DNA of 42,919 nucleotides, the filler included, from Candidatus Desantisbacteria bacterium CG1_02_49_89 (GTDB lineage Bacteria; Desantisbacteria; UBA1551): NCBI GenBank assembly GCA_001871075.1. It is 2 parts of 2 records of this genome, joined end to end, with 100 filler letters (N's around TTAATTAATTAA, not from the genome) between each part and the next. Parts side by side here need not be neighbours in the genome. Positions count along the whole stretch, not along the records: positions 1 to 31,263 come from MNUP01000006.1; 1 more part is not named here. One strand, 5' to 3'. The notes under the pieces were generated by a model. The model was given only the letters and a program-made list of their open reading frames with translations. It ran no database searches and had not been told where the DNA came from. This document shows positions 4,700-37,643 of the stretch, piece by piece. Made by a program: the position numbers and the translations under genes. Each line of letters opens with the position of its first letter. Positions within the stretch are counted from its first letter, which is position 1.

Positions 4700-5365
4700 T
4701 CAGGATTTTACTATCAGAAGGCGCACGAGGTCTGCCGCGTCCTCCGCCCTGTCACTCACCCCTTCTATGCAGTTTATCAATTCCAGGGCCATAATGAGGG
4801 TCGGGGTGTCAAAGCTTCCCTTCATTAGCATGCCGCGAAGTTCCTGGGTGCAATCATCTCCCTTTTCTTCGAGTGTTTCAACCTCGGTGCAAAGGCTAAG
4901 GACCTTTTTCACGTCTTTCGCCATGTATAAAATCGCCTCGCTTAATTTACTGACAGCCTGGACCCCGATATCGGCGAATTCCACCATTTTCCTGCACATT
5001 TCATCGGAAAATTTCTTATCGAACACTTTCAGCAGTCTTGCCCCGGCGTTCGCCCAGTCCGCTATGTTATCCAGGGCCTTGCCAAGGTGGACCAGGTCTT
5101 CCCTGTCAGGCGGCATGAACATGCCCTCTGAAAGATGGTCCATTACCTCCCTGCGGATCATGTCAGCCTCGTGCTCAGCGACAGACACTTCCTTTATTTT
5201 CTCGTGGCAGGCGGGAATGTTGCCTGTTTCAAAAAGCTCGAACGCCTCTTTCATTTTTGTCACTGTCTCGGAAACTTTTTCGATCTGTTTCTGGGCGTTG
5301 CCCATGGCCTCTTTTTCTTTTTCCATGCCGAACCAGCCCAAGATATTCCTTTGTTCTCCGCGCAT
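4700..5365 (-). CDS. DUF47/PhoU-like phosphate transport regulator
   Basis: EHEAD..RRE, PPDREDL, LD.IAD, LEEKGD, E..SD.AEDAAD; next to pit; GGAGG RBS before ATG 5365. Confidence 0.88.
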   Translation of the reverse strand: MRGEQRNILGWFGMEKEKEAMGNAQKQIEKVSETVTKMKEAFELFETGNIPACHEKIKEVSVAEHEADMIRREVMDHLSEGMFMPPDREDLVHLGKALDNIADWANAGARLLKVFDKKFSDEMCRKMVEFADIGVQAVSKLSEAILYMAKDVKKVLSLCTEVETLEEKGDDCTQELRGMLMKGSFDTPTLIMALELINCIEGVSDRAEDAADLVRLLIVKS

Positions 5366-5435
5366 ATAACCTCCCTTAAAAATTCCTTGTTTTTGCTCTG
5401 ACACGTTGATACGTTGACACGCTGACACGCAGTTA

Positions 5436-6374
5436 TTAAAAAAGGCGCATCAGCACGTAGCTTAATAATCCGGTAAGCACGGGGGTCAGCACCCAGGCGA
5501 AAATTATATCCTTTAGCAGCTTCATATTAACGCCCACGATCCCCCTTGCAAGCCCTACTCCGGCAACCGCCCCCACTATCGCGTGGCTTGTGGACACAGG
5601 CATTTTCATATACGTGAAGAAGTGGACTGTTATGGCTGTACCGAGGTTCGCGTATATCGCCATTATTTTTGTCATGCGCGTGATATTGAACCCCACGTTT
5701 ACCGCGACCCTGGCGCCGAAAGTCATCACGCCCAGGTACATGCTTAAACCCCCGAGCGCGCACGCGGCAAGGATCGGCAATATTTTACTGCCGGATAAAA
5801 GCGCTATGGAATTCCCCACGTCGTTGGCACCCCAGCTGTACGCCACGTAGCAGCTGCTTATTGTCATCAGGACCGCGGTGGCCATGGAGAATCCTTTTTC
5901 CCAGTTGAACTTTGTAAGTATAAACCACAATGCGATAAAGATCAGGAATGAAACAAGGCAGGCGCCAGTGGGAGTGGTAAACCAGCATAAAATTATCTTC
6001 CACATCGAGTTCCAGTTCACAGGAGCCTTTATTGCCAGCCCGACCCCGATGATCGAACCTACCACCGCGTGGCTGCTGCTCACCGGAAGCCCGAAATAAG
6101 AGGCAAAAAACATCCATATCCCCATGCCTATCATCCCTATCGCCGCGGCTTTGGCGCTCAGATAGCTTGCGGGGATAATGCCGCTTCCAAGGGTCTGGCT
6201 GACCTTCCCTCCTTCAAGCAGGGCTCCTGCAAGCGCGCAGGAACCGCACAGGATCATGGCAGTTCCGACCTTGCCGATGCGCGCGCCTATCCACGTTCCG
6301 AATGAATTGGCACCGTCGTTCGCCCCTATCGCCCAGCCGTTAAAAACCGAAACAAGAATCGCGATCATTTCCAT
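5436..6374 (-). CDS. pit: Inorganic phosphate transporter (PiT family)
   Basis: Two GANDxxN and two PVS(S/T)SH signatures; hydrophobic. Confidence 0.93.
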   Translation of the reverse strand: MEMIAILVSVFNGWAIGANDGANSFGTWIGARIGKVGTAMILCGSCALAGALLEGGKVSQTLGSGIIPASYLSAKAAAIGMIGMGIWMFFASYFGLPVSSSHAVVGSIIGVGLAIKAPVNWNSMWKIILCWFTTPTGACLVSFLIFIALWFILTKFNWEKGFSMATAVLMTISSCYVAYSWGANDVGNSIALLSGSKILPILAACALGGLSMYLGVMTFGARVAVNVGFNITRMTKIMAIYANLGTAITVHFFTYMKMPVSTSHAIVGAVAGVGLARGIVGVNMKLLKDIIFAWVLTPVLTGLLSYVLMRLF

Positions 6375-6439
6375 ACTGTATATCCGTGATCCCTTAGAGC
6401 GCAAATGAATAAAGTATATGCTATAAAAAAATAAGTAGG

Positions 6440-6467
6440 ATTATAGCACAAATCACAAAAAAGTCAA
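6440..6467 (-). promoter_or_regulatory. sigma70-type promoter of pit-DUF47
   Basis: TTGACT, 16 bp, TATAAT with a TGn extension. Confidence 0.55.
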
Positions 6468-6482
6468 GTAAGTATCCTGAAT

Positions 6483-7949
6483 TTATTTCTGTATCGTTAT
6501 TTCCACCCTGCGATTTTTAATTCGTCCTTCCTCACTAGTATTGAGCGCAATTGGTTTTTTCTCTCCATATCCTTTCTTTATCAATTTCTCGTCAGGTATA
6601 TCTTGTTTTACAAAATATTGCGCTACATTTTCAGCCCTGTCCTTAGAAAGCTCTAAGTTTGAAGGATATTTCGCTTTCAATCGCGGACTAATTGGCACGT
6701 TATCCGTGTGCCCCTCAATAAGAATAATTGACCCTGGATAAGCTTTTAACGCGTTTGTAATCAGGTCAAGCGCCTCATAACTCTCGGGGAGTATTTCGGC
6801 GCTGCCTGAAGCAAATCTGATCGCGGATTCCTGTGCTACTATAATAATTTTTTCATTATCTTCCGTTAGAATTAATCCTTCCAGTTTTTTCAAATCTTCC
6901 AGTGCTTTTTGATGCTCGCGCAGAAGTTTTTCAAGTTCTTCTTTTGCGCGTTTTTCCTTTTCTCTCTCAAGTCTTTCTTTTTCCCATCTATCCGCATCGC
7001 CAAAGAGGAAAGAAAGCGAAACCCACGCACCGCCCGTAAAGAACTCTGTTGAAGAATGATATGGAAGCGCAAATGCGCAATCTAATTTCCAGTCTGTCTT
7101 TTTAATGTTGTTTGATTTAACGCTTCCTCCAAAAACAAATGAAAAATCTCCATCGCCGCCTATTTTTGTTCCTGCGCGCACTCCCAAAATATTGTCCTGT
7201 ATAATTTTTTTTAAACCTTCTGTTTGTTTAAACCATGTTTCATAACCCAAGTTTAATTTAAAATCGCCGTTTCCTCTTATCGCTATGTCAGTTGAGCCCA
7301 CGATGTTATTAAAAACAGAAAAGCCATCAAATTTATAACCTGCTCCTGCTCTAAAACCCCATATTCCTGTTCCTATCTCAGTGCAAGAAATACCCACGCT
7401 TAATTTTTCAGTCTTTAGAGGCTTAAAAAAACAAGCCAAATCAGCGCTTAAATCTGCCGGAAATCTCTCGTCAAAGAACCTGCTGTCAGAAATTGCGGAA
7501 ATTGTTCTTGTATTATCAGGATAATTCTTAGAACACATTTTTAAAGTAACACCCCAGGATATTTTGGGATTTATTATCCCACAATAAGAAAGTCCCAAAA
7601 TGTTCTCTCTGTAACGAGCGGAAAGATTCACGCCACGGCTGAGGAGAGATATCCCAACATGCCCTATCTCAGAAATGCGGTTTACATAGCCTATGAATCC
7701 ATACAGGCTGTTTCCAGAGAGATGAAATAGATAAGAACCGTTTACTAGTAGTTCCGGGCGAGTAATTTGGAATAAACCTGCGGGGTTGTAGAAAAGAGTG
7801 GATGCGTCATCAGCAACCGCAATAAAAGCTCCCCCCATTCCAATACTGCGGGCACTAATGCTTAGGTCCTCAAAAGCAGCGTAACCGCCAGAGCAAAACG
7901 CAAAATATAAAATGCAGAATGTAAGTAATAAAATTTTGAGCTTCATCAT
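6483..7949 (-). CDS. Outer-membrane beta-barrel (PorV/FadL-like N-terminus) fused to an OmpA-like peptidoglycan-binding domain
   Basis: Signal peptide; SARSIGMGGAFIAVADDASTLFYNPAGL; C-terminal IEGHTD...NLELSKDRA...NRRVEI. Confidence 0.82.
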   Translation of the reverse strand: MMKLKILLLTFCILYFAFCSGGYAAFEDLSISARSIGMGGAFIAVADDASTLFYNPAGLFQITRPELLVNGSYLFHLSGNSLYGFIGYVNRISEIGHVGISLLSRGVNLSARYRENILGLSYCGIINPKISWGVTLKMCSKNYPDNTRTISAISDSRFFDERFPADLSADLACFFKPLKTEKLSVGISCTEIGTGIWGFRAGAGYKFDGFSVFNNIVGSTDIAIRGNGDFKLNLGYETWFKQTEGLKKIIQDNILGVRAGTKIGGDGDFSFVFGGSVKSNNIKKTDWKLDCAFALPYHSSTEFFTGGAWVSLSFLFGDADRWEKERLEREKEKRAKEELEKLLREHQKALEDLKKLEGLILTEDNEKIIIVAQESAIRFASGSAEILPESYEALDLITNALKAYPGSIILIEGHTDNVPISPRLKAKYPSNLELSKDRAENVAQYFVKQDIPDEKLIKKGYGEKKPIALNTSEEGRIKNRRVEITIQK

Positions 7950-7990
7950 ACACCTCCAATAATTTTTTTAATTCTGGCTTTATATCAAAA

Positions 7991-9412
7991 TTACCAGATG
8001 CTCCTGCCGATTACCCGAAGTGCTGAATCGGATGGAAAGAATTTCTTGAAAATTCTGTAATATAAAAGCTCTTCCTTGTTCCTGAGCGTTAACGAATTGT
8101 CTATAATTCTTTCTTTTTCAAATTCCTTATCAGAAATCTGCGTATTTGCTGCTTTCTCCATCATTTCGTAAGAACCTGAACCCTGGGAAAATTTCTGTTT
8201 TTTTCTCCAGACTATCTCTTTGGGCAGAATGCCCTCAAATGATTTTCTCAGGATCCATTTTTCCTGCAGGTTAGCCGCGGTTTTCAAAGCGGGAGAAATC
8301 CTCAAAGCGAACCGGACAAAATCAGTGTCAAAAAAAGGTATCTTTGCCTCTATGCCGCACGCTGAAGGTATCCTGTCGCAGCGCTGGAAGCCGGTATTAT
8401 AAAGCGCAAGCAGCAGATTGGTCATTTTTATCTGCAGCTCCCTGCCTTTCAGGTTTTTCAGGAAATCATAGCCAGCGAATAATTCATCTCCCCCCTCGCC
8501 GATAAAAACGGTGTCAATGCCTTTCTCCTTCGCAAGCCGTGCAACAAGGAAATTCGGTATTGAACTGCGCACAAGCAAAGCGTCAAAAGATTCAAGGCTG
8601 TATATGACTCCGGGCAGGATTTCTTCCATGTCTTTCCTGCCGTATACGATCGTAAAATGCGGCGTCTTGAGATACTCGGCAAGCATGGATGAAAATTTCA
8701 GATCCGGGCTCCCCCTGGTCCCCGCGGACAGAAAAATTACATTCCCGAAATTTTTTTTAACGAGATAAGCGATTATGCTGGAATCTATCCCGCCGCTCAG
8801 GAATATACCAACCCGGGACTTGCCTTCCAGCCTTTTGCGCACCGCTTTTTCAAGATTTTCCCTGAGGAGCGGCATTATTTTCTCAGGCTCAGAAAGCAGC
8901 GGGGCGGCATAATGGGCGGTCCAGTGCCGGTGCAGGCCGCATTCCGAACCGATGAAATGGCCGGGGGGCAGCGAGCTGATTTCTTTGGCGGCTGCCTGCA
9001 ATGACTTTATTTCCGAGGCGAAGTATATCTTATCCCCGCACCTGCTGTAGTAAAGCGGCTTAACGCCCAGTCTGTCCCTGACCAGCATGAGGGATCCCGC
9101 GTCATAAACCGCTATTGCGTATTCCCCGTTAATGCATTTGACGAAATCATTCTTCCTCTCCCGGAACAGGGACAGCAAATCCTCGGAGCTGATCTTTCCC
9201 GCGTTTCTGCCGTAAACTTCCCCGTCGACAAGAATGCAGCCTCTCCTGTCTCTGAAAAAACTTGAATCCGGATGTATCGCAAAGCCAAGCGAGCAGCTGT
9301 CGCCGTAAAAAAACATCGCCCTTCCGCTTAGGCCCCTGTGCTCTATTTTACTGAGCATGGTCCCTAGCAGTTTCCTGCCGCCCGATTTATATATGCCCGC
9401 GATCCCCGACAT
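7991..9412 (-). CDS. Asparagine synthetase B-like ATP-dependent amide ligase (N-terminal Cys replaced by Ser)
   Basis: MSGIAG, HRG, RDRLGVKPLYY, LSGGIDSS PP-loop, GEGGDELFAGY, EKWILR, WRKK. Confidence 0.88.
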   Translation of the reverse strand: MSGIAGIYKSGGRKLLGTMLSKIEHRGLSGRAMFFYGDSCSLGFAIHPDSSFFRDRRGCILVDGEVYGRNAGKISSEDLLSLFRERKNDFVKCINGEYAIAVYDAGSLMLVRDRLGVKPLYYSRCGDKIYFASEIKSLQAAAKEISSLPPGHFIGSECGLHRHWTAHYAAPLLSEPEKIMPLLRENLEKAVRKRLEGKSRVGIFLSGGIDSSIIAYLVKKNFGNVIFLSAGTRGSPDLKFSSMLAEYLKTPHFTIVYGRKDMEEILPGVIYSLESFDALLVRSSIPNFLVARLAKEKGIDTVFIGEGGDELFAGYDFLKNLKGRELQIKMTNLLLALYNTGFQRCDRIPSACGIEAKIPFFDTDFVRFALRISPALKTAANLQEKWILRKSFEGILPKEIVWRKKQKFSQGSGSYEMMEKAANTQISDKEFEKERIIDNSLTLRNKEELLYYRIFKKFFPSDSALRVIGRSIW

Positions 9413-9436
9413 GCTGATTTCCTTTTTGGTTCAGCG

Positions 9437-9571
9437 TTATTTTTGCCGCGCGCGTTTTTTTAACTTTTGCCGCTTCGGTAAAAAACAGGAGGCCCATGTT
9501 TTACGCGTTATGCAAAAGCCTCTTTTAGAAGCAAGCCTGCATTTGACGCCGGTGTATCTGCATGTCCGCAA
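9437..9571 (-). CDS. Small basic four-cysteine protein (44 aa), putative
   Basis: GAGGAGG RBS then TTG at 9571; C-x6-C-x8-C-x8-C; lies between the riboswitch terminator and the asnB-like gene. Confidence 0.5.
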   Translation of the reverse strand: MRTCRYTGVKCRLASKRGFCITRKTWASCFLPKRQKLKKRARQK

Positions 9572-9619
9572 TGTTCCTCCTCTGCTCTTTTTATATTCTA
9601 ACGTCCTTGATATTTGCAA

Positions 9620-9705
9620 TAAAAAAAGCCGCCTGCCTGGATTCCTTTTCCAGGATAGCGGCCCGACTATCGCATTTAACCTCTGGGAATGCTGTTCCCA
9701 GACCC
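9620..9705 (-). ncRNA. Monovalent-cation riboswitch (nhaA-I / Na+-Li+ type) with intrinsic terminator, copy 1
   Basis: Minus strand GGG-TCTGGGAA/TTCCCAGA-GGTTAAAT..GATAG-TCGGGCCG-CTATC, then GCCGC..CCTGGA/TCCAGG..GCGGC-T7 overlapping P2. Class assigned from memory of the GGGU..AGGUU..GUCGGGCCG consensus. Confidence 0.75.
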
Positions 9706-9733
9706 TTGCACCTTAGCTCCAGATTCTAATTAT

Positions 9734-9762
9734 ATTATACCATATCAATTCCCTCTTGTCAA
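9734..9762 (-). promoter_or_regulatory. sigma70 promoter for riboswitch copy 1
   Basis: TTGACA, 17 bp, TATAAT with a TGG extension. Confidence 0.8.
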
Positions 9763-9866
9763 CAAAAATTTCTATTTCTGGTTAAAATTTATTATATTAT
9801 TTTCCCTAAGCTGCATCGAACCAGGTATAATCAGCCGGAAGCAATATAATGGAATCCCCGGCATAC

Positions 9867-11051
9867 CTATTCCTGCTTTGCTCCTATTTCTCCGGCTTTT
9901 TTCAGGGCAAATTTGGTACAAAGGGGGCCGAATAATTCATATATTATGCTGGTAGTCACGATGGTAGTAATAATAATTCCGCCGATTTCCGGGAATGTAG
10001 CTTTTGCGATAAGCGCTGTGCCGAGTGCAACGCCTGCCTGAGGAAGAAGCGCAAGCCCCAGATATTTCCTAACCGAATGCCCTGCGTTTGCGATCTTAGC
10101 CCCGATTGAAGCGCCCCAAATTTTACCCAGAGAACGAAAAACAATATATACCAATCCGATCATCCCCAATTTCGGCAATACGGCAATCTCAAGGCTCGCT
10201 CCCGCGAGCACAAAGAAAATTAAATACAGCGGAGAATCAATCGAATTGAGACTGTTAAAAAACTTCGAACTTTCCCTGTCTATGTTAACGAGGACTCCAC
10301 CCAGAAACATACTTGCCAGAAGAACCGAAAGGTGCAAATAGATTGCAAGCCCTGCATTTAAAAGAATAAAACCGAGGGTATATGTTAAGAGTTCAGCCTG
10401 AGTACGGATATAGCGGGAAAACCGCTTCATTGCCCATGCAATACCGCCCCCGAGGATCAGGGCGCCGAAAATCTCCAGCAGCGATAAAAATACCACCTTA
10501 ACAAGAAACAACGCTGAAAGCATGTGGAAGTGAACTGCTCGCGCGATTGCAAGGGAAATAGCAAAAATAATCAGGCACCACGCATCGTCAATAGCAACAA
10601 CGCCCAGCAGCGTATCCGTAAAGATGCCTTTCGCCCTGTATTCTCTCACCACCATAAGTGTTGCTGCCGGAGCAGTGGCAGATGCTATTGCCCCAAAAAC
10701 CAAAGAAAGATAAAATGGCTGTTTGAGTATGAGCCAGAAAGAAAGGGTAGTAAGCAACCACGATCCACACGCCTCAAGAATTGAAGTCCATAAAACAGGC
10801 CTGCCTATCCTCTTGAACGATTCCCTTGAAAAGCTCTGCCCCAGGGAAAAAGCAATGAAGCTAAGTACGATATTTGATATGAACCCCGAATTATTTATTA
10901 GTGACGGCGAAATAAGGTTAAAAATGGACGGTCCGATAAGGATCCCGATAACCAAATAAGCTGTAACGCTGGGAAATTTCATCCTCCCTATCAGCTTTGC
11001 GCTAAGCAAGCCGACGAGAAGGATAAAACTGAAACTCAGTATCGCGTTCAT
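9867..11051 (-). CDS. Cation:proton antiporter (CPA2/KefB-like)
   Basis: Many TM segments; PSVTAYLVIGILIGP, ATAPAAT, VAIDDA, FFVLAGA, PQAGVALG. Confidence 0.9.
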   Translation of the reverse strand: MNAILSFSFILLVGLLSAKLIGRMKFPSVTAYLVIGILIGPSIFNLISPSLINNSGFISNIVLSFIAFSLGQSFSRESFKRIGRPVLWTSILEACGSWLLTTLSFWLILKQPFYLSLVFGAIASATAPAATLMVVREYRAKGIFTDTLLGVVAIDDAWCLIIFAISLAIARAVHFHMLSALFLVKVVFLSLLEIFGALILGGGIAWAMKRFSRYIRTQAELLTYTLGFILLNAGLAIYLHLSVLLASMFLGGVLVNIDRESSKFFNSLNSIDSPLYLIFFVLAGASLEIAVLPKLGMIGLVYIVFRSLGKIWGASIGAKIANAGHSVRKYLGLALLPQAGVALGTALIAKATFPEIGGIIITTIVTTSIIYELFGPLCTKFALKKAGEIGAKQE

Positions 11052-11536
11052 TTAATAAGTCCCTTCTTTTCAAATATTGCCAAAAGGATATCAAATACTC
11101 CTATTATGCCCGTAAGCCTGCCTTCTTTATCGGTAACCGGCAGCCTGTCCACGGAATTTATCTTCATTGTCGTGTATGCTTTTTCAAGGGGCATATCCTC
11201 ATCCAGATGCAGGAATTTTGCGTCCATTATGTCCTGGGCTATAAAAAGCACCCCCGCGTCTTCGTCTATGTCCAGGTTGAATATGTCCACTTCTTCTTTT
11301 TCAAGGAAAGGCACTCCCTTTATGAGACTGGTCCCTTTTGTCTGAAATATTTCTATAAGGCCCCTGAAAGAAATAGTACCTATCATAATACCTTCTTTGT
11401 TAACAACGGGAACCACGGGAAACGTGTGGAAACCCCTGAATTTCTTAAGCAGTTCCTGGAGGGTTGTTCCGGGGCTTATGAAAATCACCTCTCTGTCCAT
11501 CACGTCACTGACTAAAATAGGATTATCATTATTCAT
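11048..11536 (-). CDS. CBS-domain pair protein
   Basis: VSDVM...VPVVNKEG..IGTIS and IM...RLPVTDKEGRLTGII; coupled to both neighbours. Confidence 0.9.
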   Translation of the reverse strand: MNNDNPILVSDVMDREVIFISPGTTLQELLKKFRGFHTFPVVPVVNKEGIMIGTISFRGLIEIFQTKGTSLIKGVPFLEKEEVDIFNLDIDEDAGVLFIAQDIMDAKFLHLDEDMPLEKAYTTMKINSVDRLPVTDKEGRLTGIIGVFDILLAIFEKKGLIK

Positions 11537-13163
11537 TTATTTTCCCTCTCAGAGAATCCATTCTTGCTTTTTCTGAAATTATTTTTCCCGTCTTTCCGTT
11601 TACCGCGCAGCATTTTCCGTCAATAATCATGGTCGCTATTCCGCCCTTCGCGCAGGGATTTTTTTTCAGGTGGGGCGCGTCTAACAGACCGGTCTCTATC
11701 GCGCGCGCTATGACTTCCGGGTCCGACCACGGGTTCCCGGAGCCCTTCCCCAGTTCCTTCAGCGCGCTGAGGAGTATCCCGGCTTCCTTTACCAGTTCCT
11801 TTTTCCTGCGCTGCACCCTTGAGTCGTTTGTCATATCCGGAAAATCATCAAGCGAATTATGGGCCATACCTCTGATGATCTTGCAGCTTTCTATAAGTTC
11901 CCCCGGGCTCACGATATGATGAGCTTCGCAGTAACCTACCACGTGCAGTATGTGGGGCTTAAGTGCAAGGCTCAGCAATCCGGACGCGGCAAGCTGCCCC
12001 TTCGCGATGTCCATGTCAGGCAGGAAACTTGCAAGCCCTGCGCGCACCTGGCGGAAGGAAGTGAAATTATCGTCGTGCAGCCCTTCTATCAGTTCAATCT
12101 TGGCAAGCATCTTGCCGAGATCCATCGCAGGGGAGGTACCGGGCGGCGTGTTGAACATATACTGCGAAACGTAGTATCTTGCACCGAGCTTCTTCGCGTT
12201 ATAAGCCGCCAAAAAAGCCATTGCGACCGCAAGGGAATCATGGGCGTTCCTCAGGCTCCACTGGTGGGATTCATTCACCTCAACCGGTATTCCCCGGCCT
12301 GCATACCACCTGATCGCTTCCTGATTTTCTTTTATCGCGTCGCGTATCGGCCTGTCCGAGCGTCCGTCAAGCTCGCTGTACCAGCACAGCGGAACCGCTC
12401 CCCAGGCAATGTTTATGGTCTCCTTGAGCATCTCCGCCCATTTTATAAGGTCACGCGTCCCGCTGTAGCATCGCAATAGCGGATAATTACCGCGCCTTGC
12501 CGCGTCATATATAGCGCGAAGGTCTTCGGGTTTCCTTAAAGGCACTCCTCCAGCTCCGTCCTGCCCCGGCTTCATCTCGTCCGGCCGGAAAAAACTTTCC
12601 TGAGCGTTCTGGTCAGGCCCAAGCGAAAGCACGTCCAGGACACCCGATTGCGCGATCAGGCTTGCCCCCTCAACGGTATCCTTCACGGAGGGTAGACCGA
12701 AATGATGGCGCAGGATCGGAAAAGGATAACTCTTGTTGATTCTCGATACAAGGTCCTGCGGAAATGCCTCTTCGCCCTTGTAACTGGTTTCTCCTTTAAG
12801 GTATGCCTTTATCTCGTCCAGCGGTTCGGCTCCCTCGAAAACGCGCTCAAATAATCCGCTTTTTCGCGCGGTCTCTGCGACAGCCGGAGTTCCCCCGAAA
12901 ACAATCCTTGTTCCCGAAATATCATTCTCCCGTATCTTTGCTTTTATCTGTTCAAAAAGCCTGCCCGCGACTTCCGGGTCAAGCCTGTAGCTTATCGCGA
13001 CCAGGTCAGGGCTCTCTTCTTTTATAAACCGCATTAATCCTTCAGGCGATATTGCGGAACCGAGGAATTTCGCTGTATGGCCCTCTGCTTTGCACAGATC
13101 AAGGAAATTCAGCAGTCCGGCGACGTGAATGCAGGTGCCTATGGATGCCCCTATAATCTTCAT
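11529..13163 (-). CDS. Cobalamin-binding-domain protein fused to a large putative catalytic (mutase-like) domain
   Basis: N-terminal B12-binding fold: CIHVAG (DxHxxG variant), LG, AISY, FGG; about 400-aa C-terminal region of unknown specificity. Confidence 0.75.
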   Translation of the reverse strand: MKIIGASIGTCIHVAGLLNFLDLCKAEGHTAKFLGSAISPEGLMRFIKEESPDLVAISYRLDPEVAGRLFEQIKAKIRENDISGTRIVFGGTPAVAETARKSGLFERVFEGAEPLDEIKAYLKGETSYKGEEAFPQDLVSRINKSYPFPILRHHFGLPSVKDTVEGASLIAQSGVLDVLSLGPDQNAQESFFRPDEMKPGQDGAGGVPLRKPEDLRAIYDAARRGNYPLLRCYSGTRDLIKWAEMLKETINIAWGAVPLCWYSELDGRSDRPIRDAIKENQEAIRWYAGRGIPVEVNESHQWSLRNAHDSLAVAMAFLAAYNAKKLGARYYVSQYMFNTPPGTSPAMDLGKMLAKIELIEGLHDDNFTSFRQVRAGLASFLPDMDIAKGQLAASGLLSLALKPHILHVVGYCEAHHIVSPGELIESCKIIRGMAHNSLDDFPDMTNDSRVQRRKKELVKEAGILLSALKELGKGSGNPWSDPEVIARAIETGLLDAPHLKKNPCAKGGIATMIIDGKCCAVNGKTGKIISEKARMDSLRGKINE

Positions 13164-13164
13164 C

Positions 13165-14298
13165 CTAAACGTCCTCCCCTATCGCGTATGCCCTCAGCTC
13201 TTTCACCGTCATACCCGCTATTCCGAGTTTTTCCACAGTCCTGCCTTCTTTCCAATAATCTTTTTTGTGGATGGCTGACGCGAGATATATTACCGACTTT
13301 ATAGCCGGCGTTGGCACACCAAGCATTTCCCCCACGGAAGCTATGGGAACAAGGCTGCATGGAACGTCCTCACTGATGTAGCGGCTGTTCAGCGAGCCGG
13401 GAGACAGGATCCTCTGATAGGCCGGATTTGAATGTATCATTTCGTAAAGGCTGTTTTTCTTTCCGCCGTACGAGAAGTAAAACCAGTCCTTGGCGGACAT
13501 CGCCCTCATGCCGAGAGCCGCCGCTACCGCTACCCTTTCCTCATCGAGCTTTTCCAGGACCGCGGCGACCGAGGGGGAGCAGCCGTCCACGTAAAACCGG
13601 AAACGAGGGGTTTTCAGTCCAGGCAGGCGGATGCCCAGAAATTTAAGGTCAGAAGAATTCTCCACCCATCCGGTGTTCAGGATCGTTATTGCCGGATGGA
13701 ATATCGAACCGATATTATTCAGGCTTGTCTTAAATATATCGTCTCCGGGGACAAACTGAGGAAAGGCTTCCCTGAGCGTATCCACCACTTTTGGTATATT
13801 ATGTGCGCCTATTGAAGCAACCGGGACTTCCTTTTTTATCCCGTAGATCCTAACCTCGCCGAACGCGCTTGCCCGTGAAGCGTAAAGCAGGGTTTCCGCT
13901 TCCGCGATGATTACGTCTGCGCTGCAGCCCTTTTCCTTCAATACCTGCCTGAATTCCAGGGCGCCGAACGTCCTGCCTGGGTTGAGCACGATTATCTGGC
14001 CGTTCTGCAGGTGCGGCGCGCATGCCTCCGCGATAAACCTGTGCGCCGTGGCAGGAGTCACCACCATCAGCACATCGGTGCCTGTTACGGCTTCCCCTGC
14101 GTCTGTGGTGACCATTTTAAGCTTTCCATATCCCTCGACTTTTCCCCTGACCCGTAATCTTTTGATCATTGAAAGGGAGAAGATCCTTTTTTTGCCGCGG
14201 TTGTAAAGATTAACGGGGAAACCCATTATAGCAAGGTGCCCTGCCATGGCAAGGCCGCCGTTACCCGCGCCTAATACGCAGAACTTCAATTTCTCCAC
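13165..14298 (-). CDS. NAD/NADP-dependent opine (octopine/nopaline-family) dehydrogenase
   Basis: GAGNGG Rossmann motif, LNPGRTFGALE, ETLLYASR, N.G.IFHP, FYVDG, D.ER, RYISEDVP; GTG start. Confidence 0.9.
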   Translation of the reverse strand: MEKLKFCVLGAGNGGLAMAGHLAIMGFPVNLYNRGKKRIFSLSMIKRLRVRGKVEGYGKLKMVTTDAGEAVTGTDVLMVVTPATAHRFIAEACAPHLQNGQIIVLNPGRTFGALEFRQVLKEKGCSADVIIAEAETLLYASRASAFGEVRIYGIKKEVPVASIGAHNIPKVVDTLREAFPQFVPGDDIFKTSLNNIGSIFHPAITILNTGWVENSSDLKFLGIRLPGLKTPRFRFYVDGCSPSVAAVLEKLDEERVAVAAALGMRAMSAKDWFYFSYGGKKNSLYEMIHSNPAYQRILSPGSLNSRYISEDVPCSLVPIASVGEMLGVPTPAIKSVIYLASAIHKKDYWKEGRTVEKLGIAGMTVKELRAYAIGEDV

Positions 14299-14315
14299 TT
14301 TTCATCCCCCGCAAT

Positions 14316-14398
14316 AAAAAAAACCGCCCGCCTGGTTTTTTCCAGGATGGCGGCCCGACCATCGCTCATTTAACCTCTGGGATATGGTTCCCAGACCC
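14316..14398 (-). ncRNA. Monovalent-cation riboswitch (nhaA-I / Na+-Li+ type) with intrinsic terminator, copy 2
   Basis: GGG-TCTGGGA/TCCCAGA-GGTTAAAT..GATGG-TCGGGCCG-CCATC, with a compensatory pair change versus copy 1; terminator GCCGCC..CCTGG/CCAGG..GGCGGT plus U-tract. Confidence 0.75.
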
Positions 14399-14426
14399 TC
14401 TTTCACCGCGTCCACTTTCCAATAAT

Positions 14427-14455
14427 ATTATACCACACCTGCCCTGTTTTGTCAA
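14427..14455 (-). promoter_or_regulatory. sigma70 promoter for riboswitch copy 2
   Basis: TTGACA, 17 bp, TATAAT with a TGG extension. Confidence 0.8.
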
Positions 14456-14634
14456 TAAAAAATCAGGCTTAGGCACGAAATATGAAGAGCATGCAGAAGA
14501 TAGAGCTGCCTTTATTTGAATTACCCCATGGCAAGCCGCGGGGAGCTAAATCATACTACTGATTAGAATTTTAAAAAGTGCTCCGAATTCCTTTTATTTT
14601 TCAATGCCTTTAAAAATAGTGCCTGTCCCTGCCT

Positions 14635-15579
14635 TTAAATATATTCAATCGTGCTGGGGGGTTTTGGCGTGACGTCGAAAAGCACCTTTGTCACGTCAGG
14701 AACGCTTCCGGTTATCCTCTTCTGCATTTTCTCAAGCGCGCTGAACGGTATCCTGGTCACCCCTGCCGTGATCGCGTCCCTTGAATCAACTGAGCGCACT
14801 ACCACTATCTGGCCGAAAGTCCTTTTTCCGTTTATGACCCCTGTTGCCCTGTCTTTCAGGAGCACCGCGAAAGCCTGGAACGGCTTTATCCCCGCCTTTT
14901 TGATCTCTTCTTCGACTATGACAGTCGCTTTACGCAGGGTTTCGACTCTTTCAGGCGTTACTTCACCTATAACTCTTGTCGCAAGGCCCGGGCCTGGGAA
15001 CGGCATCCTTTCGCTGTATTCCGGCTGGACACCCAGGGCCCTGGCAACCATCCTTACCTCGAACTTGTAAAGGTCTTTTATCGGCTCAAGGATTGTCAGG
15101 CCGTATTTTCTCGGGCTTATGCCTATCTGCTGCAGGATATTGTGCTGTGTTTTTATGCCCGCCTTTGTTTCCATGATGTCAGCCGCGATCGTGCCCTGTA
15201 TCATGAACGACGCCTTGCTGATCCTTACTGCCCTGCCAAGGGTTTTATAGAACGTGTCCCTGAATGCCTTTCTTTTTATTTCAGGGTCCTCGATCCCCTT
15301 AAGCGCCCTGAAGAAATCAGCCCGGACGTTCAAGATCTTAACATTAACCCCCAGCCTTGCAAGGTCCTTCTTCACCTTCCTGCCCTCATCCTGCCTCATC
15401 AGCCCGTCATCAATGAAAAGTATGACCGCCCTGCTGCCGATCGCTTTGTGCGCGAGCACCGCGCAGGTAACGCTGTCCACCCCGCCTGAAGTCGCGACAA
15501 GCGCCCTTTTGTTTCCGACCCCGGACTTGATCTCCTTTATCCTTTTCCCGATATACGCCTTTACGTTCTTTAGCCCCAT
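14635..15579 (-). CDS. guaA: GMP synthase ATP-pyrophosphatase subunit (no glutaminase domain)
   Basis: SGGVDS, DPEIKRK, QGTI..D, IKTQHN, PFPGPGLATR, DVTPKPPSTIE; 314 aa. Confidence 0.85.
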   Translation of the reverse strand: MGLKNVKAYIGKRIKEIKSGVGNKRALVATSGGVDSVTCAVLAHKAIGSRAVILFIDDGLMRQDEGRKVKKDLARLGVNVKILNVRADFFRALKGIEDPEIKRKAFRDTFYKTLGRAVRISKASFMIQGTIAADIMETKAGIKTQHNILQQIGISPRKYGLTILEPIKDLYKFEVRMVARALGVQPEYSERMPFPGPGLATRVIGEVTPERVETLRKATVIVEEEIKKAGIKPFQAFAVLLKDRATGVINGKRTFGQIVVVRSVDSRDAITAGVTRIPFSALEKMQKRITGSVPDVTKVLFDVTPKPPSTIEYI

Positions 15580-31263: not shown

Positions 31264-31363
31264 NNNNNNNNNNNNNNNNNNNNNNNNNNNNNNNNNNNNN
31301 NNNNNNNTTAATTAATTAANNNNNNNNNNNNNNNNNNNNNNNNNNNNNNNNNNNNNNNNNNNN
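31264..31363. other. Artificial contig linker
   Basis: 44 N + TTAATTAATTAA (stops in all six frames) + 44 N = 100 bp. Confidence 0.95.
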
Positions 31364-31628
31364 GATTTTCTGCTCATCTTTTAACACAATAATCTTTTTG
31401 TTGGGGATAAGACACACGGTTACTTCTTGCTCCGGAAATCGACCTACCTTCCAGATTCTGCCTTCGAGAGTACCCACCCCCCTCACCCTACCCCTCTCCC
31501 TCGAGGGGAGAGGATAAAGGAGAGGGTGATTATTACCTGATTTTTAAACCAGCCAGCCTAAATCAATTTCCCCCAGATAGGTATACTTCTGATTGTTCCC
31601 CAGGTATACTTTTGATTATTTCCGCACA
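31364..31628. mobile_element. MITE copy 2 (left end lost at the contig edge)
   Basis: Near-identical to 42659-42919 and similar to about 81-344; ends ...TTATTTCCGCACA. Confidence 0.75.
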
Positions 31629-31796
31629 GTTAAAAAGTATTTAGTTAAAAAGTATTTAGGACATTTGAGACATTAAGTACATCAAAAACATTAAATTCAT
31701 TAACTTCATTAAACACATTATCTATACATTATAATCATTTAAAAATGCTTTCAATGGTTTCAATGTCTCTAATGTTTTTAATGTTTTCAATATTTT

Positions 31797-32573
31797 TCAA
31801 TCCAGATACCGGGCAACCGCCGCTATTGTCAGCGGGTTCGGGTCGTCTATGTCCACGCTGGACCACGCGTCCATCATATAATCATTAATGTATTTATACG
31901 GAAGGAAACCGTATCCCCCATCGCCCCAATCCGCAGACCAGCTGTTCTTGAATTTAACCAGTTCTTTCCTGTCATCATAACCCACCGGGCAGATAGCGTG
32001 ACCGCCTAACGGCCGTTCTCCCGTTGCAGGCATAGGCACAACACCGCTGAGCGTGTTCATCATTCCGCTGAAAACCATTACCCCTATCACACAGGGACCT
32101 TTGGCTGAAAGCGACATCCGCAGTTCGTCCAGGTCCAGTATCCTGGCATAGGTAAGCTGCCTGAACTTTGCAGCGTCTTCTTTCGCGCCTTTTTTAGCCC
32201 TGTTTTTCTGAAGCGGCATGTAAGGCCAGAACTTTTCCCTGCACACGCCCTTTTTCTTCAGGACCTTCATTGCCACCCTTATGGACGTGCCTTCTGAATC
32301 CGGCGCCCCGTCTATTTTCTTGCATTCGCTGTAAACAAACCTGGGTGACAGATCAATTATCTTCGCGTAGTCAACCCGTTCCTGGTATTCCTTCATTCCA
32401 GCAACGGAAGCGAATCCCACGCAGGTGCCTTCATCGCCCTGGTCCCGGATCGCGGTCATTTTTCCGGTATAATCCACCCGCATCGGCAGTTTCACCGCGG
32501 GAAGGTAAGCCCTCATTAAGTAATCCCTGTTGTCTTTCTTGTCCCTTCTGCATCCTAATTTATGCATATCCAT
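31797..32573 (-). CDS. Papain-like C1-family cysteine peptidase
   Basis: DQGDEGTCVGFA, LSPRFVY, GGHAI..VGYDD, KNSW..DWGDGGY. Confidence 0.92.
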   Translation of the reverse strand: MDMHKLGCRRDKKDNRDYLMRAYLPAVKLPMRVDYTGKMTAIRDQGDEGTCVGFASVAGMKEYQERVDYAKIIDLSPRFVYSECKKIDGAPDSEGTSIRVAMKVLKKKGVCREKFWPYMPLQKNRAKKGAKEDAAKFRQLTYARILDLDELRMSLSAKGPCVIGVMVFSGMMNTLSGVVPMPATGERPLGGHAICPVGYDDRKELVKFKNSWSADWGDGGYGFLPYKYINDYMMDAWSSVDIDDPNPLTIAAVARYLD

Positions 32574-32600
32574 CCCCGATCGAAAATTGACCCACCCCGC

Positions 32601-32876
32601 TTAATCTAATTTTTTGTACACATCTCCGCGCGGAAGGATCAGTATCACATGGACTATTTTTTCTTTTGGGTCTATCCAATAAACAGATCTTAGACAGGCA
32701 TTCTCAATCCTGTATAAACCGGCGTGTCCCTTTAATTGTTTTATCTTCCCCGGGTAATAGAATGGATTGTCTTCTAAAAGCGTAAAGTCTTCTGTCAGCG
32801 CCTTCCTCGTTTTTTCTACGGATTTTCTATAATACTTGAGCGCCCTTTTGTGCAGCCGGACCTCAAACTTTGCCAT
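32601..32876 (-). CDS. RelE/ParE-family toxin
   Basis: L..NP....KIKQLKG..GLYRI....LRSVY.ID....V.V..I.PRGDVYK. Confidence 0.85.
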   Translation of the reverse strand: MAKFEVRLHKRALKYYRKSVEKTRKALTEDFTLLEDNPFYYPGKIKQLKGHAGLYRIENACLRSVYWIDPKEKIVHVILILPRGDVYKKLD

Positions 32877-32877
32877 A

Positions 32878-33111
32878 TTACGCTTTTCTCCAGCTGGTCC
32901 CTTTTTCTTTATAGGACTCTGCCAGCGCCTGTTCTATCATTGCCCACTCTTTAATGGTGAATTCGTCTTCTATTTTCTCAACAACGGTCTGCCTTATTAC
33001 TTCGGAAACGCTTTTGTATTGCCTGCGGGCAAGATTGTTAAGATAATCATAAAGCACGGCAGGGACTCTTACCCCGATCGTTCTTTCCTTATTTTTAATT
33101 TTAGTTTCCAT
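32878..33111 (-). CDS. Ribbon-helix-helix antitoxin
   Basis: TIGVRVP..LY..L..LA.....SVSEVIRQ; GGAGG RBS; 1 bp from the toxin. Confidence 0.82.
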   Translation of the reverse strand: METKIKNKERTIGVRVPAVLYDYLNNLARRQYKSVSEVIRQTVVEKIEDEFTIKEWAMIEQALAESYKEKGTSWRKA

Positions 33112-33130
33112 GCCTGACCTCCGTCTATCG

Positions 33131-33172
33131 CTATGTTAAACATATTATAACATAGTTTTACATGCTTGTCAA
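33131..33172 (-). promoter_or_regulatory. TA promoter with overlapping operator palindrome
   Basis: TTGACA-17-TATAAT; CTATGTTA...TAACATAG inverted repeat (33131-33155) over the -10. Confidence 0.75.
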
Positions 33173-33220
33173 GAGAAAAATAAAAACCGCGTGATTTGTG
33201 CGATTTTTCAAAATAGGTTT

Positions 33221-33700
33221 CTAGGGCAGGCGTATTGCAGACCTAAGGTGTTTTGGAAGACGCCGTGATTGCCAATCCTGCCATTCCTGCCTCAGATCTT
33301 TTGGAAGACGCCGTGACAGCCGGTTAAGTTCCCTGGCAATTTTAACCCTGGCATTGGCAGGATCAGCTGCCGCAGCGGCTTTAAGAACATAGCAGGCGGC
33401 GCCGAAGGCGTGTTGGGCAACATGCGCGGTTGCCGCTGCCTGGCCTGCAGCGCGCGCGGCAAAACAAGCCGCGTCATTTTCTTTCACTTCGCGGGCTGCC
33501 GCGTGAGCAGCGAGCGAAACTTTGCGTATATCAACCATCCTGAACACGCCTGTGCGGGCCCATGCCCTGCATGCTTCTATGGCTTTGCAGGGCCGGTCGT
33601 CCTCCGGGTACGCCTTCTCAAAAAATGGAAGCACCCGTTCTGCGCTTTCCGCGGCCCAGGTCGCAAGCGCTCTCTGATCCTGTTTGTTGAATTTCTTCAT
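33221..33700 (-). CDS. Imm5-like putative immunity-domain protein
   Basis: LATWAAESAERVLPFFE..YPEDDRP..AIEA.RAW and AARAAGQAAATAHVAQHA. Confidence 0.7.
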   Translation of the reverse strand: MKKFNKQDQRALATWAAESAERVLPFFEKAYPEDDRPCKAIEACRAWARTGVFRMVDIRKVSLAAHAAAREVKENDAACFAARAAGQAAATAHVAQHAFGAACYVLKAAAAADPANARVKIARELNRLSRRLPKDLRQEWQDWQSRRLPKHLRSAIRLP

Positions 33701-33729
33701 GAATTATCTTACTGATTTCCAAGCCACAT

Positions 33730-34305
33730 TTAGTGCCAAAAGTAGGCAAAAATGGCGCTAAATCCAATAACCAAATCCGCCTTATGCGCTATTTTGGCAG
33801 GGAGAGCTCTTGCAAAATTATGGGTCTTTTTCTCGCTCATGTATCTGTCGAAAGAACGGGATTCTATCTGGTGAATCAGAATATTACGGCTCCATCCGTA
33901 TTTAATTGTCATTCTAAGGTAATATTCCCGGCGATACGTATCACTGCATTTTTCTATTATAACAACATTCTGTCCCCAGGGAATTTCTCGCACAACCTGT
34001 GCGAGTTTTGGGCTGTCTACGTAGGTAATATAGAATTTTCTCATTCTGTCTAAATTGGCATAGGAAAAGCCTATGGTCCTGGGGATCTCTTTCTGCAGAT
34101 CGTCGGCAAGCCGCTGTATTATCTTTTGTCCCCAGCCCAATTTTTTTTGCTTCTCAACTATGGACTTTCCTATCTTCCAGTAAAGATCTATGAGTTCTTT
34201 GTTAACCGAACGGTAGGCAGATATCCGCGCCTGCTTAATTCTCGTTTTTAAGTCATTGAGAAACTTAAGATACTCACCATTTTCTGAAATCAATTTTTTA
34301 TCCAT
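33730..34305 (-). pseudogene. Truncated YhcG/DUF1016 protein (N-terminal domain only)
   Basis: VNKELIDLYWKIG..I, WG...I..LA.DL, GFS..NL..MRKFY, IPW, REYY......GWSR..L..QI. Ends before the C-terminal nuclease domain, at a 28-bp repeat. Confidence 0.75.
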
Positions 34306-34414
34306 TTGCTACTCCCCAATCCTCCTGTCCACAGTTCTACTTATTCAGGTCTAAACAATCAAGATGTATTATACCACATTTCTACGATAAAATCAAAATA
34401 AAAGGGTTTTATCC

Positions 34415-34939
34415 TCAGAAGCATTCCTTGTTCAGCTCCACCTGCCTGATGCAGTCGTCTATCGTGCGGACAGGATGCCTTGGGAACGGCCACCACTTGC
34501 CTGATGCCCTTCTCCAGTACAGGTGCCATCTCTTGTCATAGCCGGTATAGCGGATATGGAACACGGATGAACGACACCAGCGGGACGGGTCTGAGAAAAC
34601 AGGCCTTCTTTCATAGACGGTAATCCTGTTGCCCCGAACATCGGCGGCAAAGCCGATCTTGTGTTTATGCATCTCCGGAATACTGTCACATTTGTCGCGC
34701 AGGTATGTGGATATCCTGCCTAATGCCTCCAGACGTATATCGTCAGGCAGTTTCTTGTTATACGTAAGCGCCTTGATGCCGGATTCGCCTGCCGCCTCAT
34801 AAGCGTTCAGGTAATAGGCGAGCTGATTTACGCTGAGCTTGCTCTCCCTGGCTAAATCATAGAAGTCATCGTCGGAAACTGCCTTAAGCGCTTTCTTTGC
34901 CCAGCAGCACTTCTTCTGAAAGGTAATGTTGGTTTTCAT
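34415..34939 (-). CDS. DUF3024-like domain protein with N-terminal HTH-like segment
   Basis: RGNRITVYERRP.....W....V..IRY......WHLYWRRASGKW. Confidence 0.6.
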   Translation of the reverse strand: MKTNITFQKKCCWAKKALKAVSDDDFYDLARESKLSVNQLAYYLNAYEAAGESGIKALTYNKKLPDDIRLEALGRISTYLRDKCDSIPEMHKHKIGFAADVRGNRITVYERRPVFSDPSRWCRSSVFHIRYTGYDKRWHLYWRRASGKWWPFPRHPVRTIDDCIRQVELNKECF

Positions 34940-34944
34940 CGCGG

Positions 34945-35658: not shown

Positions 35659-35875
35659 TTGAAACCTCTTCTATAAAGTGTTGCTGTATTATGTTCAACA
35701 GGATACGTTAAATGACGAATTTGACGAGAAATTTAGAATTATTAAGGGAGCAAAGGATACTTGCGGATAATTCCAAATACTACACGAGCATTTTTCAAAA
35801 TCAAATTATTTTTCAGGATTCCCCAAAGTTTTTCTCTGTCAGGGCATTCCGTTAGTAATTTATTCTTGATTGTCT

Positions 35876-37627: not shown

Positions 37628-37643
37628 TCATGCTCCGTAATAT

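Follow-up and report, generated by a model that had tools for sequence, protein, structure and literature searches.

The window, the whole stretch of 42,919 nucleotides analysed here from Candidatus Desantisbacteria bacterium CG1_02_49_89, harbours two adjacent units whose features all lie on the minus strand. Unit A opens with a promoter (14427-14455) composed of TTGACA, 17 nt and TG-TATAAT, which agrees with the consensus at 12/12 positions. An nhaA-I aptamer (14345-14398) and an intrinsic terminator (14313-14356) follow, and four genes come after them: odh (13165-14298), for a 377-aa enzyme of the opine dehydrogenase family (PF02317, E 2.9e-46); a gene for a 544-aa protein with a CxHxxG motif, in which a B12-binding domain (PF02310) is fused to a glutamate-mutase-epsilon-like barrel (11529-13163); a gene for a 162-aa CBS-pair protein with two copies of PF00571 (11048-11536); and a gene for a 394-aa cation/proton antiporter of the Na_H_Exchanger type (9867-11051; PF00999, E 3.8e-35). 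The gap between odh and the B12 gene is 1 nt, and the CBS gene overlaps both its neighbours, the B12 gene by 8 nt and the antiporter gene by 4 nt. The unit therefore has the composition, order and close junctions that had been claimed for it in the initial annotation. The antiporter reaches 121.9 bits with PF00999, above the cut-off, and 57.7 bits with the CPA2 model TIGR00932, the cut-off of which is 238.3 bits.

Unit B starts with a promoter (9734-9762) that likewise shows a 12/12 consensus with TG, and continues with an aptamer (9653-9705), a terminator (9619-9664) and a gene for an AsnB-like protein (7991-9412; PF00733, E 9e-62) that begins with MSGIAG and is devoid of the glutaminase nucleophile. 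Between the leader and this gene lies a putative basic frame of 44 codons with a TTG start and four Cys (9437-9571), read from the translation. It has no Pfam match, and no counterpart was found at L076, the other nhaA-I-bearing locus; of the unit B originally outlined, the promoter, riboswitch and AsnB-like gene stand and the four-Cys mini-ORF is unsupported. An OmpA-family gene (6483-7949; PF00691) is located 41 nt past the AsnB-like gene. The gap holds a Shine-Dalgarno site, no terminator was seen in it, and unit B probably extends into the OmpA-family gene, which is possibly co-transcribed.

A cmscan search with Rfam detected exactly two nhaA-I RNAs above the RF03057 gathering score of 37 bits, aptamer A with 44.2 bits and aptamer B with 45.7 bits, both covering the full model (1-55); they are the sole two in the 2.48-Mb assembly and bear out the idea of twin units sharing one RNA motif. 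Only two sigma-70 promoters of the 12/12 TTGACA-17-TATAAT type with TG occur within 7800-14700, one ahead of each RNA. The minimum-free-energy fold, which supplies the terminator coordinates in leader A, places there a hairpin with a U8 run (z -3.5), and the fold of leader B (z -4.18) gives a hairpin with a U7 run. In both folds the GC-rich terminator hairpin recruits the 3' side of stem P2 of the aptamer. Over about 190 nt, promoter and terminator included, the identity between the leaders is 82%, and a compensatory A-U to G-C change distinguishes their P2 stems.

The sections of White et al. 2022 (PMC9646797) drawn on here describe a Na+-responsive nhaA-I variant upstream of genes of unknown function. 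In this Na+-II riboswitch an intrinsic terminator serves as the expression platform of the aptamer, the diagnostic nucleotide being C54 (numbering of the D. propionicus construct) instead of U, and Deltaproteobacteria are the only group in which those sections place terminator-bearing variants. Judged from sequence, the terminator design of both window leaders matches the Na+-II variant, the assignment being made by terminator coupling, and Na+ is the presumed ligand of both.

The opine dehydrogenase assignment of the first enzyme is supported by 157.7 bits with PF02317 (cut-off 30), by the GAGNGG motif of an N-terminal NAD(P) Rossmann fold and by a match to N-(1-D-carboxyethyl)-L-norvaline dehydrogenase (1bg6; E 3e-70, residues 3-370). 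In the second enzyme the B12-binding Rossmann domain spans residues 2-117 (PF02310, E 8.8e-11). At the level of sequence this protein matched no solved barrel, and PF06368 gave no match to it. Structure prediction, proposed earlier as a check, produced an AF2 model with a pLDDT of 89.8 and a GlmE-type fold at E about 1e-17: the best Foldseek hits are 6h9e_B (E 1.3e-17) and 1cb7_B (E 3.3e-17), with target-normalised TM-scores of 0.65-0.66, and ornithine 4,5-aminomutase and lysine 5,6-aminomutase come next. By this model the protein folds like glutamate mutase, and it may be an adenosylcobalamin-type mutase of fused GlmS-GlmE build. The DxHxxG base-off/His-on motif is altered, with His and Gly kept and Asp exchanged for Cys, and C11, H13 and G16 of the resulting CxHxxG are invariant in 32/32 aligned sequences. 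In a weak hhalign profile alignment (probability 0.58) the GlmE segments QPRAG, TRQN and RHGTPD align with RHHFG, PDQN and YSGTRD, and the GlmE arginines sit opposite His, Tyr or a gap. We take this arginine claw to be what binds the substrate, glutamate, in GlmE; as this alignment does not retain the arginines, glutamate is doubtful as the substrate here. A search for a PduO- or CobA-type adenosyltransferase found none in this 93.5%-complete assembly; one is present in each of five other module genomes tested. The B12 family is very widespread: at about 60% identity it has >4,500 relatives in various phyla, and the closest named relative of the window protein belongs to a MAG of Candidatus Desantisbacteria, a phylum of two genomes in the collection.

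The AsnB-like protein has E. coli AsnB (1ct9) as its best match (E 1.8e-60, residues 75-467), starting at AsnB residue 98. Its PP-loop reads SGGIDSS, and SGG[LI]DS is kept in 45/45 module-linked relatives. Ser stands in place of the Cys nucleophile, the N-domain is shortened, and the scores fall below the AsnB cut-offs (352.1 against 499 for NF006949; 234.4 against 267.1 for TIGR01536): on these grounds the protein is not a plain asparagine synthetase, an identity that would have undermined the pathway first proposed. Cys2 is absent in 38 of the 44 module-linked AsnB-like proteins and kept in the other 6, a pattern that argues for ammonia transfer over cyclisation.

The association of these enzymes extends far beyond the window. 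The initial annotation had suggested a survey of co-occurrence, and across 99 non-redundant loci of Bacteria and Archaea the three enzymes do occur together widely. The odh gene adjoins the B12 gene in 94 loci, and the five without odh are cut by a contig end less than 80 nt upstream of the B12 gene. An AsnB-like gene is found on the same strand in 46/99 loci, and in 33/59 where both sides have room. Carriers include Bacteroidales, Rikenellaceae, Acidobacteriota, Tissierellia, Thermaerobacter, Methanomicrobia and Thermoplasmatota. In G001, a sister genome that is 87% complete, one row of genes comprises odh, the B12 gene, the CBS and antiporter genes and an MscS gene, so that CBS and antiporter are kept together; these two genes are lineage-specific additions outside the conserved core. 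Neither an AsnB-like orthologue nor, at E<=1, an nhaA-I RNA was found in that genome, and no AsnB-like gene was found at E<=1e-30 in the whole genomes G002 and G005. The pairing itself has been anticipated: the part of Zhang et al. 2009 (PMC2667541) used here predicts the B12 family, always adjacent to octopine/nopaline dehydrogenase, and places asparagine synthase and D-Ala-D-Ala ligase near it. With the gene set predicted there and the riboswitch class published (PMC9646797), at least in the parts of both papers considered, the label 'undescribed' was an overstatement.

An Rfam scan of the module surroundings in 85 loci revealed a second, independent riboswitch class and so strengthened the salt and osmotic link originally put forward. 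In 15/85 loci the module has a c-di-AMP riboswitch ahead of it on its own strand; at L119, one of these, the riboswitch is followed by AsnB-like, odh and B12 genes. Another nhaA-I RNA precedes the module in one of the 85 loci, L076, with a terminator and then MscS, AsnB-like, B12 and odh genes. At L030 a fluoride riboswitch, not an osmotic one, is located upstream of odh, and no recognised riboswitch was found beside the module in 68 of the 85 scanned loci. Further Na_H_Exchanger genes neighbour the module at L046, L066/L067 and L095, and a NAAT-family transporter gene follows the AsnB-like gene in eight loci. The c-di-AMP riboswitches and the recurring MscS, antiporter and NAAT genes independently back an osmotic or salt role. 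The DNA runs that contain the stretch are metagenomes from groundwater and aquifers, with no saline source among them, and a search of RNA runs found it in none.

Since Na+-type switches drive both an enzyme set and a cation pump, a small protective molecule is probably made as salt rises. In the mechanism that we propose, the terminator would form in both nhaA-I leaders when the cation is absent; bound Na+ would hold stem P2, block the terminator and let transcription read through. Unit A would then yield the opine dehydrogenase, the GlmS-GlmE-like fused mutase and a CBS-regulated cation/H+ antiporter, and unit B a glutaminase-dead AsnB paralogue. Starting from a common amino acid or oxo acid, Odh and the mutase would build an N-carboxyalkyl (imino-diacid) amino acid in rearranged form, of which the AsnB-like enzyme would adenylate one carboxylate and amidate it with ammonia, lowering the net charge. 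The product would be a solute for salt or osmotic stress, or else a counter-ion of K+, and the antiporter would expel Na+. To this mechanism as a whole, from Na+-II switches through the rearranged and amidated N-carboxyalkyl amino acid to the solute or counter-ion, we assign an even chance; its biosynthetic direction, substrate, step order, amidation and solute role are what we infer. Counting against it are the many loci lacking a recognised riboswitch and the fluoride RNA at L030, the two elements not found in G001, the non-saline source of the DNA runs, the Cys for Asp in the B12 loop, the adenosyltransferase not found in the assembly, the GlmE arginines not retained and the place of the AsnB-like protein in the quick tree described below. 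A wider and more tentative proposal, which may well prove incorrect, is that Odh and the CxHxxG enzyme perform a novel cobamide-dependent N-carboxyalkyl rearrangement and, with the Cys-less AsnB (a Ddl-like enzyme in Firmicutes), produce a new class of compatible solute, which numerous anaerobes among the Bacteria and Archaea would use in response to Na+ or low c-di-AMP.

The module might instead be catabolic or serve salvage, with Odh oxidatively splitting an imported opine-like or osmolyte-derived compound and the mutase and amide enzyme feeding central metabolism. Opine dehydrogenases catalyse reversible reactions, which is compatible with such a direction; 1bg6, the closest solved Odh relative, comes from a soil Arthrobacter, amino-acid-fermenting Tissierellia are among the carriers, and the NAAT-family transporters could be read in the same sense. 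However, a Na+ ON switch and c-di-AMP repression suit hyperosmotic stress, and breakdown of a solute would be expected afterwards. ATP-consuming ligases (AsnB-like in 46 loci, Ddl-like in 6) are moreover typical of synthesis and the MscS channels by the module fit the release of an accumulated solute, so that degradation appears unlikely.

Another view would make the AsnB-like protein functionally separate, an ammonia-dependent synthetase of asparagine or another product that merely belongs to the same Na+ regulon. Its own promoter, riboswitch and terminator, E. coli AsnB as its best match and the absence of AsnB-like genes from G001, G002, G005 and 53/99 loci all agree with this. So does a quick tree, in which the window protein falls outside the main Cys-less module clade of 28 rows and groups with the L119 protein and Cys-bearing forms; long paralogues taken as outgroups nest in this same group. 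Against such independence, the two leaders are near copies of each other, the AsnB-like gene lies directly beside the pair in 46 loci, and at L119 and L076 it shares one riboswitch-controlled operon with the pair. The L119 protein is also the nearest relative of the window protein (43% identity), and at the site where E. coli AsnB reads ETYDVTTIRA the window protein has ESFDALLVRS, a motif of the subfamily. In addition, a fragment of gatB is present in the assembly and no AsnRS hit exceeds the cut-off, so that Asn is likely formed on tRNA here and translation can probably do without free asparagine. A separate function is accordingly rather improbable.

AsnB paralogues amidate peptidoglycan in some Firmicutes, and the product could be a cell-envelope block, an unusual (D-)amino acid or amide destined for peptidoglycan under salt stress. 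This would accommodate the Ddl-like ligase genes, which lie in the operon in six loci and never together with an AsnB-like gene, the D-glutamate-cyclase-like gene at L102, the OmpA-family gene downstream of the AsnB-like gene in the window and the rare peptidoglycan-related genes reported downstream of nhaA-I (Weinberg 2017, PMC5737381). Yet the Ddl-like protein encoded in the operon reaches the cut-off of no Ddl model, and the module occurs in Archaea without peptidoglycan, namely Thermoplasmatota (L008, including the AsnB-like gene) and Methanomicrobia (L003, the pair only), which renders an envelope role very unlikely. Opine dehydrogenases finish pathways of the staphylopine and pseudopaline type and PF02317 is present, but an opine-type metallophore is scarcely credible given that neither a nicotianamine-synthase-like nor a racemase partner was seen among the conserved neighbours, control is by Na+, c-di-AMP and fluoride RNAs rather than by metal regulators, and Odh is closest to 1bg6.

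What the window adds is regulon-type evidence: two near-identical Na+-type leaders tie a separately transcribed AsnB-like gene to odh, the B12 gene and the antiporter. If the reading as a salt-induced solute pathway is true, a very widespread B12 family predicted in 2009 would gain a physiological role, and through the odh/B12 pair both a novel B12-dependent reaction and a novel solute for stress in anaerobes would be defined. Cultured carriers of the module, for example Clostridium ultunense DSM 10521 (locus L005), make the question directly testable.

Each component has a known counterpart from which it departs. The window RNAs resemble Na+-II in exceeding the RF03057 gathering score, in a terminator that competes with the aptamer and in the ON logic expected, but they occur in Candidatus Desantisbacteria, not Deltaproteobacteria, and two copies would steer two adjacent units. 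Odh shares the conserved His-Pro and Arg-Tyr..Glu-Asp segments with 1bg6 from Arthrobacter and octopine dehydrogenase 3c7a, whereas in the enzymes of the window and the sister genome 14 residues are inserted past the HP..LN loop and module Odh always has the B12 enzyme as its partner. This B12 enzyme recalls GlmS/GlmE (EC 5.4.99.1; 1cb7, 6h9e) in its B12-binding Rossmann domain and GlmE-type barrel, and differs in being one polypeptide with the B12 domain first and CxHxxG in place of DxHxxG. The AsnB-like protein has the PP-loop synthetase domain of AsnB (1ct9) and, like beta-lactam synthetase (1jgt) and carbapenam synthetase CarA (1q15), no N-terminal Cys, although its similarity to these two is far lower (E 1e-17 and 1e-15). 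A parallel in overall design is kamA, which the consulted portion of PMC9337991 places behind tandem Na+-I and c-di-AMP riboswitches for N-epsilon-acetyl-beta-lysine: in that case both riboswitch types control a radical enzyme that rearranges an amino acid on the way to a stress solute, a logic that the module would share, and the window would use an AdoCbl-type mutase and an opine dehydrogenase instead of a radical-SAM aminomutase and an acetyltransferase.

Positions 6483-14455 of the window form a single block of genes, all on the minus strand. Unit A opens with odh (13165-14298), which is followed after a 1-nt gap by the B12 protein gene (11529-13163), by the gene of a CBS-pair protein (11048-11536; 8-nt overlap) and by a Na_H_Exchanger antiporter gene (9867-11051; 4-nt overlap). 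Unit B contains the AsnB-like gene (7991-9412) and, 41 nt past it, an OmpA-family gene with a good Shine-Dalgarno site (6483-7949) probably also belongs to this unit and may be Na+-switched with it, as the gap is short and no terminator is seen in it. The OmpA-family protein has a barrel-like N-terminal part, then a coiled stretch rich in Glu and Lys, and its OmpA domain lies at the C-terminus. Beyond unit B, genes for a PiT (PHO4) phosphate transporter and a PhoU_div (DUF47) protein (4700-6404, minus strand) have their own promoter, TTGACT-17-TATAAT, at ~6445-6473. At 14635-15579, also on the minus strand, a 314-aa protein has just two GMP synthase domains, the PP-loop and the C-terminal one (PF00958 plus PP-loop), and is thus encoded by a split guaA, an arrangement usual in Archaea. 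Contig C149 covers window positions 1-31263, positions 31264-42919 being N or off this contig.

Each unit is preceded by an nhaA-I RNA (RF03057; 14345-14398 and 9653-9705), and both RNAs exceed the gathering score in cmscan; the 2.48-Mb, 93.5%-complete assembly has no others. A perfect promoter, TTGACA-17-(TG)TATAAT, stands ~25 nt upstream of each RNA, and these are the only two 12/12 promoter matches within 7800-14700. The 3' side of each aptamer carries a GC-rich hairpin and a run of U7 or U8 (fold z -4.2 and -3.5), and in both leaders the 3' strand of aptamer stem P2 doubles as the 5' arm of this terminator hairpin. The two leaders share 82% identity between the -35 box and the U-run, with a compensatory A-U to G-C change in P2. 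The initial annotation had also placed a four-cysteine mini-ORF in the leader of unit B. A basic frame of 44 codons, four of them for Cys, is present at 9437-9571 (minus strand), but its status as a gene is unsupported and it was not counted as one: a Pfam search gave no family match and L076, the other locus controlled by an nhaA-I RNA, has no counterpart. The leader between terminator and AsnB-like gene folds no better than shuffled sequences (z -1.65).

The module, that is the odh/B12 pair with or without the AsnB-like gene, was compared across 12 genome loci, 11 from a census of the class to which Clostridium ultunense belongs (orthologue in 12/300 genomes) and 80 metagenome loci; removal of five duplicates (L027, L065, L084, L092, L103) left 99. 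The proposed co-occurrence of the enzymes holds: odh adjoins the B12 gene on the same strand in 94 of these loci, and in the five others less than 80 nt of sequence is available 5' of the B12 gene. An AsnB-like gene occurs in 46 of the 99, or in 33 of the 59 where both sides have room. The distribution of the module is patchy, since a sample of 301 Bacteroidia genomes returned only the seed genome and no new loci. The gene set had been presented as a candidate undescribed system, but as a set it is not new: Zhang, Rodionov, Gelfand and Gladyshev 2009 (PMC2667541) predicted the B12 family in 11 genomes, 'always adjacent' to a pfam02317 octopine/nopaline dehydrogenase, and noted genes of asparagine synthase and D-Ala-D-Ala ligase in the vicinity. 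Full-text literature searches turned up no later functional work on the pair and no paper that links it to c-di-AMP or Na+ riboswitches; the gene-association table of PMC9646797 may already include these genes.

Odh is closely related by sequence to a genuine opine dehydrogenase, the Arthrobacter N-(1-D-carboxyethyl)-L-norvaline dehydrogenase 1bg6, which it matches over its whole length (E 3e-70). Among six aligned orthologues, a 14-residue insertion around DLKFLGIRLPGLKT (residues ~216-230), directly after the conserved HP..LN loop, is common only to the window and its sister genome (L016:4972-6093). The B12 protein (544 aa) contains PF02310 at residues 2-117 and no further family, NCBIfam included; a sequence search against PDB chains gave no match and a profile search of solved structures reached B12-binding domains only. 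Its AF2 model is confident (pLDDT 89.8), and the structural matches of this model, led by the glutamate mutase epsilon subunit (GlmE; E ~1e-17) and followed by ornithine 4,5-aminomutase and lysine 5,6-aminomutase, suggest a mutase-like fold. The cofactor loop C-x-H-x-x-G is invariant in all 32 bacterial and archaeal relatives compared. In hhalign the family and ten GlmE sequences are collinear without reaching significance (probability 0.58), and this alignment serves as a tentative residue map only. On this map QPRAG, TRQN and RHGTPD of GlmE fall opposite RHHFG, PDQN and YSGTRD. The glutamate-binding arginines of GlmE are thus probably not kept in the B12 family, which makes glutamate itself doubtful as the substrate. 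An adenosylcobalamin-type cofactor is plausible; all five other module genomes tested encode a PduO- or CobA-type adenosyltransferase. The assembly of the window (93.5% complete) encodes other B12-binding proteins; neither an adenosyltransferase nor a cobalamin riboswitch was found in it. A second B12 family, of ~650 aa and with the canonical DAHTLG motif, occurs in 6/300 genomes of the Clostridia-class set (L037-L041 and, in genome G002, L042:823-2766). Its barrel is 37-40% identical to that of the window protein (residues ~150-500), and in L042 its gene has as neighbours an M20 peptidase gene and one for a membrane protein with a Gate domain.

The AsnB-like protein begins MSGIAG and scores below both AsnB cut-offs, and its alignment with E. 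coli AsnB does not start until residue 75; it keeps the PP-loop and reads ESFDALLVRS where AsnB has ETYDVTTIRA. Other AsnB-family genes of this genome encode ~650-aa proteins of another subfamily. As a gatB fragment is present in the genome and no AsnRS exceeds the cut-off, Asn-tRNA is probably made via transamidation. A housekeeping role for the AsnB-like gene is unlikely. In 44 module-linked AsnB-like proteins that align from their first residue, position 2 is occupied by Ala in 27, by Ser in eight and by Cys in six, with Pro, Glu and Gln once each. Retention of the glutaminase nucleophile in some orthologues makes ammonia transfer to an adenylated carboxylate more likely, as the chemistry they all share, than closure of a lactam. 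None of the 11 loci of the Clostridia-class set has an AsnB-like gene, and in five of them a Ddl-family ATP-grasp ligase, scoring below every Ddl cut-off, precedes odh; the two ligases occur together in no locus.

Links to salt and osmotic stress extend to other loci. A search of 85 loci against the whole of Rfam at its gathering thresholds, five of them also 3 kb further upstream, placed a c-di-AMP riboswitch just upstream of the module and on its strand in 15 (L005, from Clostridium ultunense DSM 10521, and L009, L010, L028, L029, L031, L033, L088, L101, L108, L109, L110, L112, L116 and L119). This riboswitch precedes a Ddl-like gene in L116, L028, L029 and L031, and in L119 it heads the AsnB-like, odh and B12 genes, in that order. 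In L076 an nhaA-I RNA is followed by MscS, AsnB-like, B12 and odh, and in L030 a fluoride riboswitch (179-240) lies 140 nt directly upstream of odh. At these thresholds the other 68 loci showed no recognised RNA adjoining the module. In L045 a fluoride riboswitch (5743-5813) directly follows the B12 gene and precedes a histidine-phosphatase-like gene. The sister genome retains odh, B12, CBS and antiporter genes and adds an MscS gene; it lacks the AsnB-like gene and, at E<=1, any nhaA-I RNA. Its MscS gene, after the antiporter (L016:671-1680, minus strand), is read in two frames of 204 and 120 aa, a split that may reflect a frameshift or an assembly error. Elsewhere, a NAAT-family transporter gene follows the AsnB-like gene in eight loci, further Na_H_Exchanger genes lie near the module in L046, L066/L067 and L095, and TldD/PmbA genes in five loci. 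In one metagenome locus a D-glutamate-cyclase-like gene (PF14336; L102:5694-6758) sits between the B12 and AsnB-like genes, which may hint at a glutamate-like or cyclic intermediate.

The odh/B12 pair is where two stress-sensing RNA classes converge that are unrelated to each other and occur in unrelated phyla; channels and antiporters adjoin the pair. The genes are best read as a module, induced by stress, for the biosynthesis of a small solute derived from an amino acid, in which ATP-dependent ligases would trim the charge of the product and, in the window, the Na+ switch would also co-express a Na+(Li+)/H+ antiporter. The groundwater habitat of this DNA is a weak point for the salt reading, as is the fact that no riboswitch accompanies the module in most loci; none of the sequencing runs listed for the stretch is an RNA run. 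Readings in which the product is an opine-type metallophore or a peptidoglycan building block rank low. The pattern on which the initial annotation drew is real and non-random, and its interpretation as a salt-responsive biosynthetic system is reasonable. The window contributes a twin-leader regulon that ties a separately transcribed AsnB-like gene to the odh/B12 pair, a new association of antiporter and CBS genes with the module and, with the Na+-II assignment based on terminator architecture, a host beyond the reported range of Na+-II riboswitches.

The nhaA-I RNA of the window belongs to a known class, described by Weinberg et al. 2017 (PMC5737381). According to White et al. 2022 (PMC9646797), most members sense Li+, and rare variants with an intrinsic terminator, named Na+-II, respond to Na+, stand before genes of unknown function and were found in Deltaproteobacteria only. 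Among named relatives of the B12 protein the closest is from a Candidatus Desantisbacteria MAG (76% identity), a phylum represented by two genomes only in the genome collection, and the host would therefore fall outside the range reported there for Na+-II. The terminator architecture described by White et al. for Na+-II is also present in both window leaders, and the L076 leader, in front of the same enzymes, is likewise of the terminator type.
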